Below, in pieces: positions 21,296 to 29,869 of a DNA stretch of 50,767 nt (position 1 is its first letter; each line of letters opens with the position of its first letter). Below the pieces are notes generated by a model. It did no database searches. It saw only the letters and a program-made list of their open reading frames with translations, and was not told where the DNA came from. The translations under genes were made by a program, and so were the position numbers. Source of the DNA: Candidatus Bathyarchaeia archaeon (GTDB taxonomy: Archaea > Thermoproteota > Bathyarchaeia > TCS64); the NCBI GenBank assembly GCA_050014495.1, contig JBEKDF010000020.1:1-50767 (forward strand), given 5' to 3'.

Positions 21296-21547
21296 ATGAT
21301 AGGAAAGAGGAGAGATAAACTCGAGGTCATCGAGGACATTCTGAAGGCAGCCGACACACCCCGTGGTGCGAATAAGACGCGTCTTGTCTACGGGTCTAAC
21401 CTCAACTTCAACCGCCTTTCGGTCTTTTTGCCCTTTCTACTTGAGAAGGGTCTACTTGAGGAGTCTGAGGATGGCGCCGTCTACGTAACAACCGTTAAGG
21501 GTAGAGAGTTCATCAAACAGTTAGCCGGAATGCAGAAGATGCTGTGA
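21296..21547 (+). CDS. Archaeal winged-helix transcriptional regulator (HTH_45-like)
   Basis: RRDKLEVIEDIL...KTRLVYGSNLN...L.EKGLL...Y.TT.KG.EF pattern. Confidence 0.85.
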   Translation: MIGKRRDKLEVIEDILKAADTPRGANKTRLVYGSNLNFNRLSVFLPFLLEKGLLEESEDGAVYVTTVKGREFIKQLAGMQKML

Positions 21548-22073: not shown

Positions 22074-22367
22074 CTACTCCTCATCGAGGCAGAATGGGCA
22101 TAGAAGCTTCTCCATGTGCCCCGCCGGATAGTTTACAACTATACCATGCTTCTCACATCTAAAGGCGTAGAATGGCACCGCCGCTTTCCAGCCGTGCATT
22201 TTGAAATCTCCAATATGCACGTGGCCGTTTAGTGTAATCCTCAAGGCGTGATAAGGAGTAATGCCAGATGCGAGGACCTTGAGGAAGGCGAGACGCTCGT
22301 CCTTCTTGCTCTCTACGGCTAAAGGCGTAGATCCATGCGAATCCTTGACCTTATTTTCTTCGCCCAT
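22074..22367 (-). CDS. Small CxxH/CxxC zinc-finger protein, paralog 1
   Basis: FYAFRCEKHG...PAG...LLCPFCL. Confidence 0.75.
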   Translation of the reverse strand: MGEENKVKDSHGSTPLAVESKKDERLAFLKVLASGITPYHALRITLNGHVHIGDFKMHGWKAAVPFYAFRCEKHGIVVNYPAGHMEKLLCPFCLDEE

Positions 22368-23867: not shown

Positions 23868-24158
23868 CTAATGTTTGATCTCCTTCAAACACTCCCCACA
23901 GATCAACTTCGACTCCCAGCCAACTGGAGCTGAGACCTGAAGGCCATGTTTAGAGCATTTGAACAGATAGAGCGGTAACTGATTGTTATTCTTCAGTGTG
24001 ATCATGCCAACCTTCGTATACCCAAATATTTTAAAGGATAATTTATTGATGACATTAAAACTGAAACTTGTAATAGAAAACGTATTGACTCTAATTAGCT
24101 TTAAAATTTCACTCCTGTTTAAAGGTAGGACTAATCGATCAGTACCCGTGGAGGTCAT
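23868..24158 (-). CDS. Small CxxH/CxxC zinc-finger protein, paralog 2
   Basis: LYLFKCSKHG...PVG...LICGECL. Confidence 0.7.
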   Translation of the reverse strand: MTSTGTDRLVLPLNRSEILKLIRVNTFSITSFSFNVINKLSFKIFGYTKVGMITLKNNNQLPLYLFKCSKHGLQVSAPVGWESKLICGECLKEIKH

Positions 24159-25870: not shown

Positions 25871-26046
25871 GGGATGCACATCTGAATGACGAGCGAGACC
25901 ATTCTCTACGAATCGCTGGACAGAAAAGAGAAGACCCCTAAGACTGTATTTTAAGCACCTTTCCCTTTTTACAACAAGCATGCGACATCACCCGAGCATA
26001 TTATTGCGTAACAGATACGCGAGTATACTATTTCGCACACTCAGCT

Positions 26047-27366
26047 TTATTCTACTACCGCGTGCACTATCTCGAGTTTATCTAGCCCAGCACCACACAA
26101 TATTTTATCATTTTCTTGGAGAGGTATTCCAAGCGACGCAAAGAACTCGTGATGGGTCCTGCTCACCTGTCCAGATAAGTCGGACTCCATGATTTTAATG
26201 AGCTCAGGCTCACGCTGAACGGTCTCCCCTTCTACTCCGATGCTTTTACCGATACGCGTGTATGTGCAACCATACTTCCTGCATTGATTGATATTAGCGG
26301 AACCTGAAAAGGCAAGTATCTTCCCTACCCTCCTCTGAGACATTGCCTTAAGACTGACAGCCCAGTACTTTTCGTCGTCACCGAACAGATAGATGGTACC
26401 CAATCGATATTGGCGTTGAGTTTTCTCAATTATTGAGTAAAGTTTTTTCTTCTGTATCCAGCCCTCAAACTCTAACACAGCGATTTTTAGCAATGTTTCA
26501 GGTACATTATTCGTGTAATACAAAGAGTAGCAGATATTTTCCTCGGGTCTGGGCCTAACTCCCACTCGGCCCAAGAACCCAGAGATTTTGTTGGCCGAAG
26601 GGGCCGTCATCTCCCACCGCTGTGGGATCCTGGGAGCAGAGAATCCTTCTCGAGTAGCCAATTTAAGTATTGTCTCGATGTCTAACTCGAGTTCAGTCCT
26701 TGTAAGAAGAGTACAAGCTAAACCCGTCTTCGAGTTTATAGTCCCCGGTAGACGAATTATCCTCCGAGTGTCAACCGTAACCTTTTCATCAAAGAGGATC
26801 TGTTTATCCTTCGCCTCCTGAACCAGCTTCTTTCTCTCCGCGATGGCCTTCATCTCCCGTTTTCTGGGCTCCAGCTCGTTTTCCATCGAGCTCCAGGGAT
26901 CATCACATACGATGTGGAAACCCTTGCTCCCTGAGAAAGCCAGGTAACGCACCTTGAAGCCCTTTAATTCGAGGAAATCGTTTAAGGCAATAGCCTGCGC
27001 CTTTGCTTCGTCTAGTGTCTTGACTTTATTTGATACGTCTATGTCGAAGGATAAGTCGCATGATAAGTAGATGTTTTTTAGGATGTCTTTATCGAGTCTA
27101 CTGGCAATCAGGTGAGGGTTTAGCCAATTGGCCGTCGAGTAGTAAACATCTAAGGGAGTGTTCTCGATCAGACATTTGCGCAGGTCTTCTGAGTCGTGGA
27201 TCTTGTGCCTGATCTTGTAGAAGGAACCGTCCAGAAGTCTTAGGCGAAAATGTCGAAACTTGATATCAGGGAGTGGCTTCAGATCTATCAGATTTGAAGC
27301 GTAGAACAGTTTAAGTGAGTCTTTAAGGGGGTGGCTTGTTGCCTGCACCCGAGCTATTCTGCTCAT
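26047..27366 (-). CDS. Non-canonical PriS-like archaeo-eukaryotic primase-polymerase with a C-terminal extra domain
   Basis: P.DVYYS.A.W.NP; motif I DLSFDID; motif II FSGSKGFH; motif III FDEKVTVDTRRIIRLPGTINSKTG; about 190 extra C-terminal residues. Confidence 0.88.
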   Translation of the reverse strand: MSRIARVQATSHPLKDSLKLFYASNLIDLKPLPDIKFRHFRLRLLDGSFYKIRHKIHDSEDLRKCLIENTPLDVYYSTANWLNPHLIASRLDKDILKNIYLSCDLSFDIDVSNKVKTLDEAKAQAIALNDFLELKGFKVRYLAFSGSKGFHIVCDDPWSSMENELEPRKREMKAIAERKKLVQEAKDKQILFDEKVTVDTRRIIRLPGTINSKTGLACTLLTRTELELDIETILKLATREGFSAPRIPQRWEMTAPSANKISGFLGRVGVRPRPEENICYSLYYTNNVPETLLKIAVLEFEGWIQKKKLYSIIEKTQRQYRLGTIYLFGDDEKYWAVSLKAMSQRRVGKILAFSGSANINQCRKYGCTYTRIGKSIGVEGETVQREPELIKIMESDLSGQVSRTHHEFFASLGIPLQENDKILCGAGLDKLEIVHAVVE

Positions 27367-27707
27367 TCACGTACCTTTACAAGGTCACCGTATTTTCTGG
27401 TGTCGATGAATGTCCTGAAACCCCTTTTTGCGTCGCCGCTTAGGGATCCCTTCGAGTCGAGTTCGCTGAAGATTTTATCTAATTGTGCTTTAACCTCGTC
27501 ACTAGTTTGCCCATCTTTAAAGTTGGTTCCGTAGTTACTTTTTATCCACGCTGCGAGCCTACCATATTTTCCGTTTCGTCTATTCCTCTGTGGCTGAGGC
27601 TTTGAAGCTTCATTACGCTTTTGTTCTTCCTGTTTCTTGACATCTTCTTGTTGAGCCATTCGTTTTTCGGCTTCCTTCTTTATGCCACCAAGCAGATCTT
27701 TGAACAT
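27363..27707 (-). CDS. Small helical basic protein translationally coupled to the PriS-like gene
   Basis: 114 aa; its stop overlaps the downstream start (ATGA, 27363-27366). Confidence 0.75.
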   Translation of the reverse strand: MFKDLLGGIKKEAEKRMAQQEDVKKQEEQKRNEASKPQPQRNRRNGKYGRLAAWIKSNYGTNFKDGQTSDEVKAQLDKIFSELDSKGSLSGDAKRGFRTFIDTRKYGDLVKVRE

Positions 27708-27856
27708 TCATCTAGTAATTTTTTTTAATGAATAAAAGTATTCTGGGTTCCTGAAGATTTAATGCGTGTGCTTTCGAGGCATACTAGAGCATGAAAAGAG
27801 CCGCCTTCGCATGTCCTGTTTTAATACTACAACATATGCCTCTTGAATAGAATAAC

Positions 27857-29869
27857 ATGGCCAAGAAGGGCAAAGTTACCAACCAAAACCAGGATGCGAG
27901 TGAAAATAGTATCCTAAATCGTCTTAAAAGTGGAAGAAAGATAATTTACGCTACTGCATTGGGGTTAATTATAGCCTGTGCAGTGATTCTCAGGATTCTG
28001 ATCCTGAGGTGGGGATACTATCTCAACGAGTTCGACCCCTTCTTCTTCTACCGCATAGCAGAGTATGTCGCGAAAAATGGCTACGGCGCCTATTTCACCT
28101 GGCACGACACTCTGAGCTGGTACCCTCAGGGAAGGGACATAGCGCATAGCAGTTACCTAGGTAACTCGTTCACGGCCGTCTTCCTATACCAGCTCCTGAA
28201 CGCAATCCAGCTGAAGGTACCCCTCTTTAATGTGGCCATGTTCTTCCCCGTCTTAATGGCATCAATAGTCGTCATAGTCGCATACTTTTTCGGAAAAGAC
28301 TTGGGTGGTAAAGCGGTTGGCTTATTCACGGCGCTATTCATGGCGGTAAGCCCAAGCTATCTCGAGAGAACTGTCGCAGGTTTCTTCGACACTGAATGCA
28401 TAGGGTTTTTCGGGATGATTGCGACACCTCTACTCTTCCTGAGAAGCATTGAGACCAAGAAATCACTGAGGAATCGAGTTCTCTACGCCATCGCCGGTGG
28501 CCTAGTTATGGGCTACGCTTTTGCCTCCTGGGGCGCTGCTCGATACATCTCCAGTCTCCTCCTGCTCTACATAGTGGTGACACTAGTGATGGGCAAGATA
28601 GAGTGGCGACACATCATATCGTATAGTATAACGATAGGAGTCGGGTTTCTCATCGCGTTGATAATCCCCCGCCTCGGCGTCAGCTACCTCATGAACATCG
28701 AGAACCTAGCCGCCATCGGTGGCATAGGCCTATTGATAGTCTATAAGATTATCCAGGGAAGGTTACCAGAGACACAGGCTCGTACTGTGACACTAGGATT
28801 AGTCGCCTTGGCGGTTGTGGGTTTCATAGTATTACCCTACGTGGGGGTTGGGAACCCTATAGTCGGCAAATTCTTGAAGGTACTTAACCCCTTCGAAGAC
28901 GCTGGCGCACTCTACCAATCGGTCGGAGAAAACTTAGTAACGAACTGGGCAGCCTTTTTCCAGGATTTCGGAATAACTATAGTACTCGCCGCTTTAGGCG
29001 CGTTCTTTATACTACATGAAGGAGGAGACAACAAAGTATACCTACTCCTCTTCTTCCTTACAGCAATATACTTCGCAAGTACCATCGTAAGACTAACCTT
29101 AATATTGTCTTTCCCAGTCTCGATATTAGCAGCCTACTCCATTGTGAGGATCCTCGAAGGTTTCAGCGTTGTTTTCACGCAAAAAGACACATCAAAGGGA
29201 CGAAATTCGAGGAGGAAACAGATTGGAGTTAGTAAGGGTCTTAGCTTGATCTTCATACTGCTACTCTTCGGCTCCCTTGTGCCACACTTCCTCAACGCAG
29301 AAACGACTGCTGCAAGCCCCGGACCTCTAGCGTCGAGTAGCGTCCCCATCCAAATTAACGGTGGTTACCCAACTGATTGGCTCAAGGCCCTCAACTGGCT
29401 TAAGGCAAACACCACTCAGAAGTCAGTGATACTATCCTGGTGGGACTACGGCTACTGGATAGAGACTATGGCGAATCGGACGACGATCATAGACGGTTCT
29501 ACACAGAACAGCACTCAGATCAAATATGTTGCTGATATGATGATGAATCCCGAAAATGTATCACTGCCTTTGATGAAGCGCTTCAACGTCGACTATGTAG
29601 TCGTCTTCATAACCTATAACCCGAATACTCCCAGCGAGGAGTGGCCCTTCGGTGACAACGCTAAGTGGCCTCAGATGGCGAACATTGCGGGACTTAATGT
29701 TAACGACTACTATACGTATAATTCGACATCGAGTAAATATCAGTATTCGTACAAGTTCGTTAACACTACGATTGCCGGGCTCATGTATGGTTTAGCTGAT
29801 AAGACCCACTTCGTATCAGTCTATGACTCTCCGCTCGGATGGGTCCGAATCTATAAGGTGGAATATTGA
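27857..29869 (+). CDS. aglB: Oligosaccharyltransferase (STT3/AglB)
   Basis: EFDPFF, WYPQGR, GFFDTE, SVGEN and WWDYG motifs; about 13 TMs. Confidence 0.96.
   Translation: MAKKGKVTNQNQDASENSILNRLKSGRKIIYATALGLIIACAVILRILILRWGYYLNEFDPFFFYRIAEYVAKNGYGAYFTWHDTLSWYPQGRDIAHSSYLGNSFTAVFLYQLLNAIQLKVPLFNVAMFFPVLMASIVVIVAYFFGKDLGGKAVGLFTALFMAVSPSYLERTVAGFFDTECIGFFGMIATPLLFLRSIETKKSLRNRVLYAIAGGLVMGYAFASWGAARYISSLLLLYIVVTLVMGKIEWRHIISYSITIGVGFLIALIIPRLGVSYLMNIENLAAIGGIGLLIVYKIIQGRLPETQARTVTLGLVALAVVGFIVLPYVGVGNPIVGKFLKVLNPFEDAGALYQSVGENLVTNWAAFFQDFGITIVLAALGAFFILHEGGDNKVYLLLFFLTAIYFASTIVRLTLILSFPVSILAAYSIVRILEGFSVVFTQKDTSKGRNSRRKQIGVSKGLSLIFILLLFGSLVPHFLNAETTAASPGPLASSSVPIQINGGYPTDWLKALNWLKANTTQKSVILSWWDYGYWIETMANRTTIIDGSTQNSTQIKYVADMMMNPENVSLPLMKRFNVDYVVVFITYNPNTPSEEWPFGDNAKWPQMANIAGLNVNDYYTYNSTSSKYQYSYKFVNTTIAGLMYGLADKTHFVSVYDSPLGWVRIYKVEY

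Follow-up and report, generated by a model that had tools for sequence, protein, structure and literature searches.

The gene pair and the question it raises

A PriS-like enzyme of the AEP type, encoded beside a small basic protein and away from priL, raises the question of whether it is a primase in the ordinary sense or part of a system of another kind. The answer developed here is that the gene pair and an element nested within it are a real, conserved three-part module, to which no described system corresponds. In the window (the whole stretch of 50,767 nucleotides that was analysed), the initial annotation had described two ATGA-coupled minus-strand ORFs of 114 and 439 aa, whose coordinates were confirmed (Table 1), and both genes are under purifying selection. 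Pfam places PF01896 in the 439-aa ORF and returns no family for the 114-aa ORF. Around the pair lie genes for aglB/STT3, a membrane HTH protein, a glycosyltransferase, and an RsmB methylase, which have housekeeping and membrane roles and no relation to it; as had been stated, these flanks contain no priL, replication, CRISPR, or ligase gene. Upstream of the small gene, a T-rich box occupies positions -30..-28 in 32-37 of 42 homologous upstream regions and is preceded there by A-rich BRE-like positions; the operon transcript is predicted to be leaderless.

Table 1. Features of the module in window coordinates
Feature	Position	Strand	Basis or remark
Operon TATA box, predicted, TTTTATTC	27730..27737	-	-30 to -23 from the ATG of the small gene
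Small basic partner gene, 114 aa	27363..27707	-	dN/dS and co-occurrence
Two-domain AEP gene, 439 aa, ATGA-coupled to the small gene	26047..27366	-	
N-terminal PriS-fold AEP domain, residues ~10-240	26647..27339	-	VIA, Foldseek, motif invariance
Internal TATA box CTTAAAT, predicted, codons 234-236	26661..26667	-	30 nt upstream of the RNA element
Nested structured RNA element, ~93 nt, predicted	26545..26637	-	conservation and covariation
C-terminal domain, residues 276-439, likely degenerate AEP palm	26050..26541	-	

The AlphaFold model of the full-length enzyme shows two domains with a low-confidence stretch (246-275) between them, and, the pTM being 0.55, predicts no inter-domain contact. The "~190-aa extension" described at the outset thus exists as additional C-terminal sequence, yet not as a single unit, since it consists of this low-confidence linker of ~35 residues followed by a folded domain of ~164 residues.

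An intact AEP domain distinct from the replicative primase

The three AEP motifs reported for the 439-aa ORF are all present, with D108 and D110 (FDID), H151 (SGSKGFH), and D199 and R205 (DEKVTVD..R.IRLP) each invariant in 92/92 aligned homologs. The N-terminal domain (N-domain) aligns with 1zt2_A in VIA at Z 19.9 (rmsd 3.2, 212 aligned), and with 5of3_A in Foldseek at E 3.4e-9. Its model and motifs point to an intact PriS-fold AEP, for which nucleotidyl transfer is predicted. The reported absence of a Cys/His cluster after motif I was also confirmed, while the canonical PriS of the genome has one.

The source genome contains four PF01896 matches and one PF04104 match. A canonical priL-priS pair is located on contig C1, followed by a gene that we take to be GINS-like, and the 439-aa enzyme is therefore not the replicative primase. 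Another match is a LigD-type polymerase on C3 (L002, G000:C3:65223-68582), beside Ku-like and ATP-dependent ligase-like ORFs named from their motifs, in what appears to be an NHEJ cluster of bacterial type; C53 carries a PriS-like gene of 268 aa, in the vicinity of an integrase-like ORF. A canonical priS separate from the enzyme was found in 5/5 other carriers tested, 3/5 of which also have a detectable priL. The search for a separate priS/priL proposed in the initial annotation thus bears out its view of a second, non-replicative AEP. Against the PriS equivalog NF001641 (cut-off 326 bits), the enzyme scores 78 bits over partial stretches, whereas the canonical C1 copy scores 230 bits across the whole profile, itself below the cut-off.

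In trees of the catalytic domain (a first of 48 rows, after one fragment and 19 redundant rows were dropped, and a second of 36 rows, after 12 further rows were dropped), the enzyme family forms a single clade on a long branch (SH-aLRT 99); its link to the C53-type proteins has an SH-aLRT of 88-92 and carries a long-branch warning. An AU test did not reject grouping with, or descent from, the PriS of the same genus (p 0.156). The C53-type sister clade (L004:1210-2016, L199, L201) comprises PriS-like proteins of 268-299 aa with His/Cys after motif I, and in the source genome an integrase-like ORF lies nearby.

A probably degenerate AEP palm at the C-terminus

The C-terminal domain (C-domain), folded alone, reaches a pLDDT of 90.5. 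The structural check suggested for it gave a divided result: the best 9/9 VIA rows are AEPs (105-125 aligned), at Z 5.0-6.2 against a typical chance best of 7-8 for the tool, and Foldseek returned nothing at E<=0.001. A profile search with the C-domain retrieves a family of standalone proteins of ~180 aa (range 163-214 aa), which retrieves the C-domain in reverse; hhalign joins the two at 96.4% (E 1.3e-9). This one-domain family (alignments A4/A5, 393 homologs) has a D-x-E, an Arg, an Asp, and an Arg that are nearly invariant across 111 sequences. At the corresponding sites, the C-domain reads E299-x-(G/E)301, with E299 kept and Gly at 301 in 59/92, has A336 at the motif II residue and N358 at the motif III Asp, and keeps R371, alongside the invariant basic motifs RR..K and K.G.C. 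According to section 8 of PMC5862659, the acidic residues are nearly universal among AEPs, and replacement of the motif II His by Arg is known from DR0530-like AEPs. The C-domain is predicted to be inactive because the catalytic acids and the motif II residue are eroded, and on profile and model evidence it is probably a degenerate AEP palm.

The initial annotation had proposed such a second AEP, which remains likely, as its assignments of IAVLEFEG to motif I, IYLFGDDEKYW to the motif II strand, and TYTRIGK to the Arg strand fit the profile alignment; its "late SRTH" motif has no equivalent in the aligned one-domain relatives. The proposed origin by tandem duplication fails, given that the N- and C-domain profiles do not align (hhalign probability 2.8-3.5%). 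Duplication of one AEP within the gene is thereby ruled out, and acquisition of the C-domain by fusion is favoured.

The C-domain does not match PF24387 (cut-off 27 bits), against which the standalone relatives score 13.6-15.1 bits; a link of the A4/A5 family to PF24387 is only a lead (Pfam E 0.057; Atlas 0.95, with a low recognition score). No significant match in PDB or Pfam came up by sequence for the C-domain, the standalone family, or the small protein, an Atlas search with the C-domain gave unnamed clusters only (all <0.8), and a search with the C-domain of the divergent locus L105 returned itself alone. C367, H405, C424, and H435 (window 26060-26270) are near-invariant (92, 92, 89, and 91 of 92, respectively) and could form a zinc site; in L105 the set reads C/H/H/H. 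The one-domain AEP-like genes (L128:1498-2049, L130:1492-2124, L132, L134, L135, and L144; alignment A5) lie among small ORFs of provirus-like regions in Bathyarchaeia; the next gene is usually a basic one whose product begins DRFPEAF, and a C2C2 zinc-finger ORF often comes before.

A structured element nested in the linker

The linker is conserved at the nucleotide level, with base-pair covariation. In 54 full-length genes, the fraction of synonymous differences falls to 0.19-0.25 at residues 241-280 against 0.48-0.64 (about 0.55) elsewhere, with an intermediate 0.37 at 231-240, where a TATA-like box lies. Pairwise dS, for those pairs in which it is computable (L007 is saturated in both domains), is 0.06-0.31 in the linker versus 0.8-2.4 in both domains. 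Identical linker nucleotides encode EMTKDFV in some homologs and DDQGLR in others, indels compensate one another, and the overall frame is kept in 61/63 distinct linkers, the exceptions being frameshifts at or directly past the element (L093, L096); the linker is thus translated and yet selected as nucleic acid. An overlapping ORF was ruled out, every other frame having stops in 42-54 of the 54 genes, as was a -1 frameshift site, the TTTAAAT run being out of register for a slippery heptamer. The reading of this segment as plain protein extension had overlooked a conserved structured nucleic acid, and the nested RNA with its predicted promoter makes the system different from the one first envisaged.

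The predicted element consists of a 5' pseudoknot strand (26637-26632), hairpin P2 (26626-26613), the conserved junction GAGAUGAC, hairpin P3 (26605-26593), a conserved CAAAAU junction, and hairpin P4 (26580-26545), the loop of which (26563-26558) pairs with the 5' end of the element in a 6-bp pseudoknot. There are 63 distinct linker sequences; in the 49 from which this structure was drawn, and on which it was also counted, 95.7% of cells are paired. Two-sided changes occur at 9/25 pairs, including 5/5 pairs of P2 and 3/9 of P4; the pseudoknot is 99.3% paired, with one two-sided change among the 49, plus one in L114. None of 500 shuffles, which ignore relatedness, equalled this result, and slid controls reached <=57%. 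RNAalifold recovers P2 and P4 unaided. P3 varies in sequence but persists as a hairpin (mean z -2.46, 27/35 below -1.5; flanks 0.1 and -0.33). The closing helix P1 is uncertain, being 90.6% paired without a two-sided change, and RNAalifold favours another pairing there; the window stretch including flanks has ordinary folding stability (z 0.30).

G-U pairs exceed A-C mismatches by 56 to 13 cells, although 27 of the 56 stem from one pair, and this excess favours a sense-strand RNA; folding energy favours the sense strand in just 22/49. The best independent test is L114 (39% identity, outside both alignments), which matches the covariance model at 51.5 bits; in its pseudoknot one C-G pair has become G-C by compensatory change, and a TTTAAA box stands 30 nt ahead of the element. 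Of 46 sequences scored (49 examined), 42 have a YTTAAAT-like box at this upstream distance of 30 nt, a pyrimidine-purine step coincides with the first base of the element in 44/46, and codon 234 of the box is NTT in 48/49 while its residue varies among L, F, I, and V. The spacing is the same as that of the operon's own predicted promoter, and a promoter internal to the gene is predicted on these grounds. The RNA structure is well supported, and its separate transcription and role are predictions.

Rfam 15 gave 0 matches at E<=1 for window positions 26000-27900 and 12 homologous loci. A covariance model built from 28 sequences, with 27-150 candidates scored per genome, found one strong copy in the source genome and placed the element in 5/71 family and 2/146 class genomes, always within the enzyme gene; no copy was detected at the loci of canonical priS, LigD, C53-type, or standalone genes, and none in L105. 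In L105, the linker is 60 nt shorter, and element and small gene are both missing, so that a joint loss would concern a single locus. A hammerhead ribozyme (CUGANGA core in 0/49, GAAA in 1/49) and a box C/D sRNA (RUGAUGA in 0/49, CUGA in 9/49) were ruled out, and four matches to the P4 pattern in viral_contigs, of 20-32 nt and 14-18 bits, were treated as chance.

The small partner protein

The small protein comprises an amphipathic N-terminal helix, a variable linker, and a conserved helical domain of ~70 aa (~45-114), which is basic (pI 9.85). The first helix has a moment >0.5 in 47/58 sequences, from which membrane tethering is only an inference. The gene is constrained (dN 0.035-0.049 vs dS 0.6-2.0) and accompanies the enzyme in 78/79 loci with upstream DNA; the 88 loci examined, which are not independent because they are related and some come from the same genomes, divide into these 78, nine that are truncated or without the N-domain, and L105, which has no small gene. 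Among 401 class genomes, it occurs in exactly the seven that have the full C-domain. The notion of a dedicated companion that co-occurs with enzyme homologs has therefore held, with L105 as the single exception. Sequence searches found no likeness of the small protein to PriCT, PriX, or PriL. Fusions of its core occur as well (L077, L081, L082, and L205): three loci add a double zinc ribbon at the C-terminus, and G577 has a long domain at the N-terminus.

Distribution of the module

Among 7999 scored candidates, 320 enzyme homologs were found at E<=0.001, and four relatives at 65-74% identity are labelled Bathyarchaeota/Bathyarchaeia. Full-length copies occur in 4/17 same-genus genomes, plus one remnant, in 7/401 class genomes, and in 2/401 phylum genomes, with the source genome included in the last two counts. 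The neighbours in 46 loci and the window include neither a third co-travelling gene, the next-commonest cluster occurring in 6, nor a conserved mobile-element gene. Word-limited viral scans with A1, L126, and A4, and a word-limited tblastn against phages, found no relative.

Comparison with known systems

The N-domain shares its fold and motifs I-IV with archaeal PriS (Saccharolobus/Sulfolobus solfataricus 1zt2 and 5of3; Pyrococcus 1v33). However, the enzyme lacks the Zn knuckle and an adjacent priL, and differs in its extra C-domain, nested RNA, and patchy distribution. The nucleotide-binding signature of archaeal PriS is H-R-H (PMC5862659, section 9), whereas that of the enzyme is H-R-N, with N211 in 85/92. 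PolpTN2 and the PriCT/PriX-assisted primase-polymerases likewise combine a PriS-like domain with a non-catalytic helper, but the helper here is an AEP-like palm together with a separate small protein in which no PriCT/PriL likeness was detected. Reverse transcriptase and nucleotidyl transferase activities are reported for the N-terminal domain of PolpTN2 in PMC5862659, and the sections consulted describe no RNA component for PolpTN2 or PriCT/PriX enzymes. The C-domain is homologous to the A4/A5 family (compare Pfam PF24387, "AEP 1D-like"), but of that family's residues it no longer has the second acid, the Arg of motif II, or the Asp of motif III. LigD PolDom and Prim-PolC are also non-replicative AEP folds (N-domain Z 13.8-14.1); however, the enzyme falls in a separate tree clade with no Ku, ligase, or PE gene nearby, and the genome's own NHEJ locus lies elsewhere, on C3.

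Retrons and DRT2 are defence reverse transcriptases that use a noncoding RNA (ncRNA), and DRT7/UG10 are RT-primase fusions. By analogy, retron/DRT systems also unite a polymerase, a structured ncRNA, and an accessory protein in a small, patchily distributed module. In contrast, the polymerase here is an AEP, the RNA is nested in coding sequence, and PADLOC gives no match; no RT family matched within the module. A literature search that covered mainly freely accessible papers found neither an AEP with a dedicated structured RNA nor a two-AEP fusion of an active and a degenerate domain.

Proposed mechanism and alternative explanations

We propose, tentatively, that the enzyme, its partner, and the nested ncRNA form a ribonucleoprotein that acts as an RNA-dependent nucleotidyltransferase. 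This is likelier than an ordinary primase because the gene carries a conserved RNA, predicted to be pseudoknotted and to have a promoter of its own, and it is the simplest account since enzyme, dead palm, basic partner, RNA, and nested promoter stay together. The operon promoter would yield both proteins and the internal promoter a separate RNA of ~93 nt; the eroded C-domain, through its RRM-like palm and invariant basic residues, and the basic small protein would grip this RNA, and the N-domain would add nucleotides, the RNA acting as template, primer, or acceptor and standing in for PriL. For a PriS-like domain, synthesis on an RNA template has a precedent in PolpTN2 (PMC5862659). Its scattered occurrence and unrelated surroundings suggest that the module is accessory and most likely serves defence or repair, where defence is read solely from the patchy, context-free distribution; PADLOC did not match the enzyme. 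Integrative elements are the proposed source of additional replication genes in archaea (PMC3914693). More speculatively, and by analogy, the module might be a retron-like defence system built on a primase, in which the AEP would copy or extend its own nested-promoter ncRNA, held by the dead palm and a membrane-tethered partner, into a defined DNA or RNA product.

The structure might instead act in cis, setting the ratio of N-domain-only to full-length product as an autoregulatory site for the small protein or C-domain, a processing site, a pause element, or an unrecognised ribozyme, and leaving the enzyme a protein-only accessory polymerase. This is a serious but minority possibility: the element occupies precisely the sense-strand stretch that separates the two domains, the two frameshifted loci break at or just past it, and its three-way-junction layout resembles that of a hammerhead. 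Against this, a cis element would have no need of a pyrimidine-purine start or of a TATA-like box held at 30 nt, the pseudoknot employs the first nucleotides after the putative start, the hammerhead core is missing from all 49 sequences, and the frame is otherwise intact. Rather unlikely is a second mRNA from the internal promoter, of which the structure would be a riboswitch-like leader controlling the C-domain alone from Met253. An AUG within the GAGAUGAC junction is in frame in 78/92 homologs, and standalone relatives of the C-domain exist; however, the Met253 position is Asp or Asn in 14/92, where those letters fall in a different reading frame, and the AUG lies inside the structure, upstream of P4.

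The model of the initial annotation, in which an active and an inactive AEP work in repair or nucleotide synthesis and a protein partner takes the place of PriL, would make the linker conservation incidental. The protein anatomy agrees with it, and in other AEPs the part of PriL is taken by small helical domains (PMC5862659, section 19), but it leaves the synonymous-site dip, the frame-independent conservation, and the covariation unexplained, no resemblance of the small protein to PriCT, PriX, or PriL was detected by sequence, and Ku-LigD is already in the genome; we regard it as unlikely. A site for the primase in the form of a single-stranded DNA hairpin, left by a mobile element, has a model in RepB', which recognises ssi sites. 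Covarying hairpins whose folding energy has no strand preference would suit it, as would the grouping of the N-domain with integrase-adjacent PriS-like proteins, yet G-U tolerance and the promoter-like box indicate RNA, and the lack of a conserved mobile-element neighbour (46 loci and window) and of a viral relative among the patterns searched makes it improbable. Least credible is that the enzyme is the replicative PriS or a working substitute: PriS is its nearest fold, the AU test leaves same-genus grouping standing, and priL is detected in only three of the five other carriers, but the canonical second copy on C1 largely refutes it, and the low NF001641 score and occurrence in only 4/17 same-genus genomes also speak against it.

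Should the RNA of the proposed ribonucleoprotein prove to be a cofactor, the primase superfamily would join retrons and telomerase in carrying out RNA-programmed synthesis. Even as a cis element, the structure would be an RNA motif not in Rfam, and the module shows that an RNA gene can leave its trace in a protein as a "disordered linker". At 1.7 kb, the three-part module is compact and easy to express and assay.

Further observations at related loci

The same-genus locus L015/L208 (G015:C1:45563-45706) retains only the last ~48 codons of the C-domain and is likely a deletion remnant. L105:4253-5512 encodes a divergent 419-aa homolog with both domains, without RNA element or small gene, oriented divergently from an nrdD-like gene named from its motifs. 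In the window, a small HTH gene lies at 21296-21547, and two related small ORFs at 22074-22367 and 23868-24158 end in a C..H-x-C..C motif; a homolog of these ORFs adjoins the module in L008 and L038.
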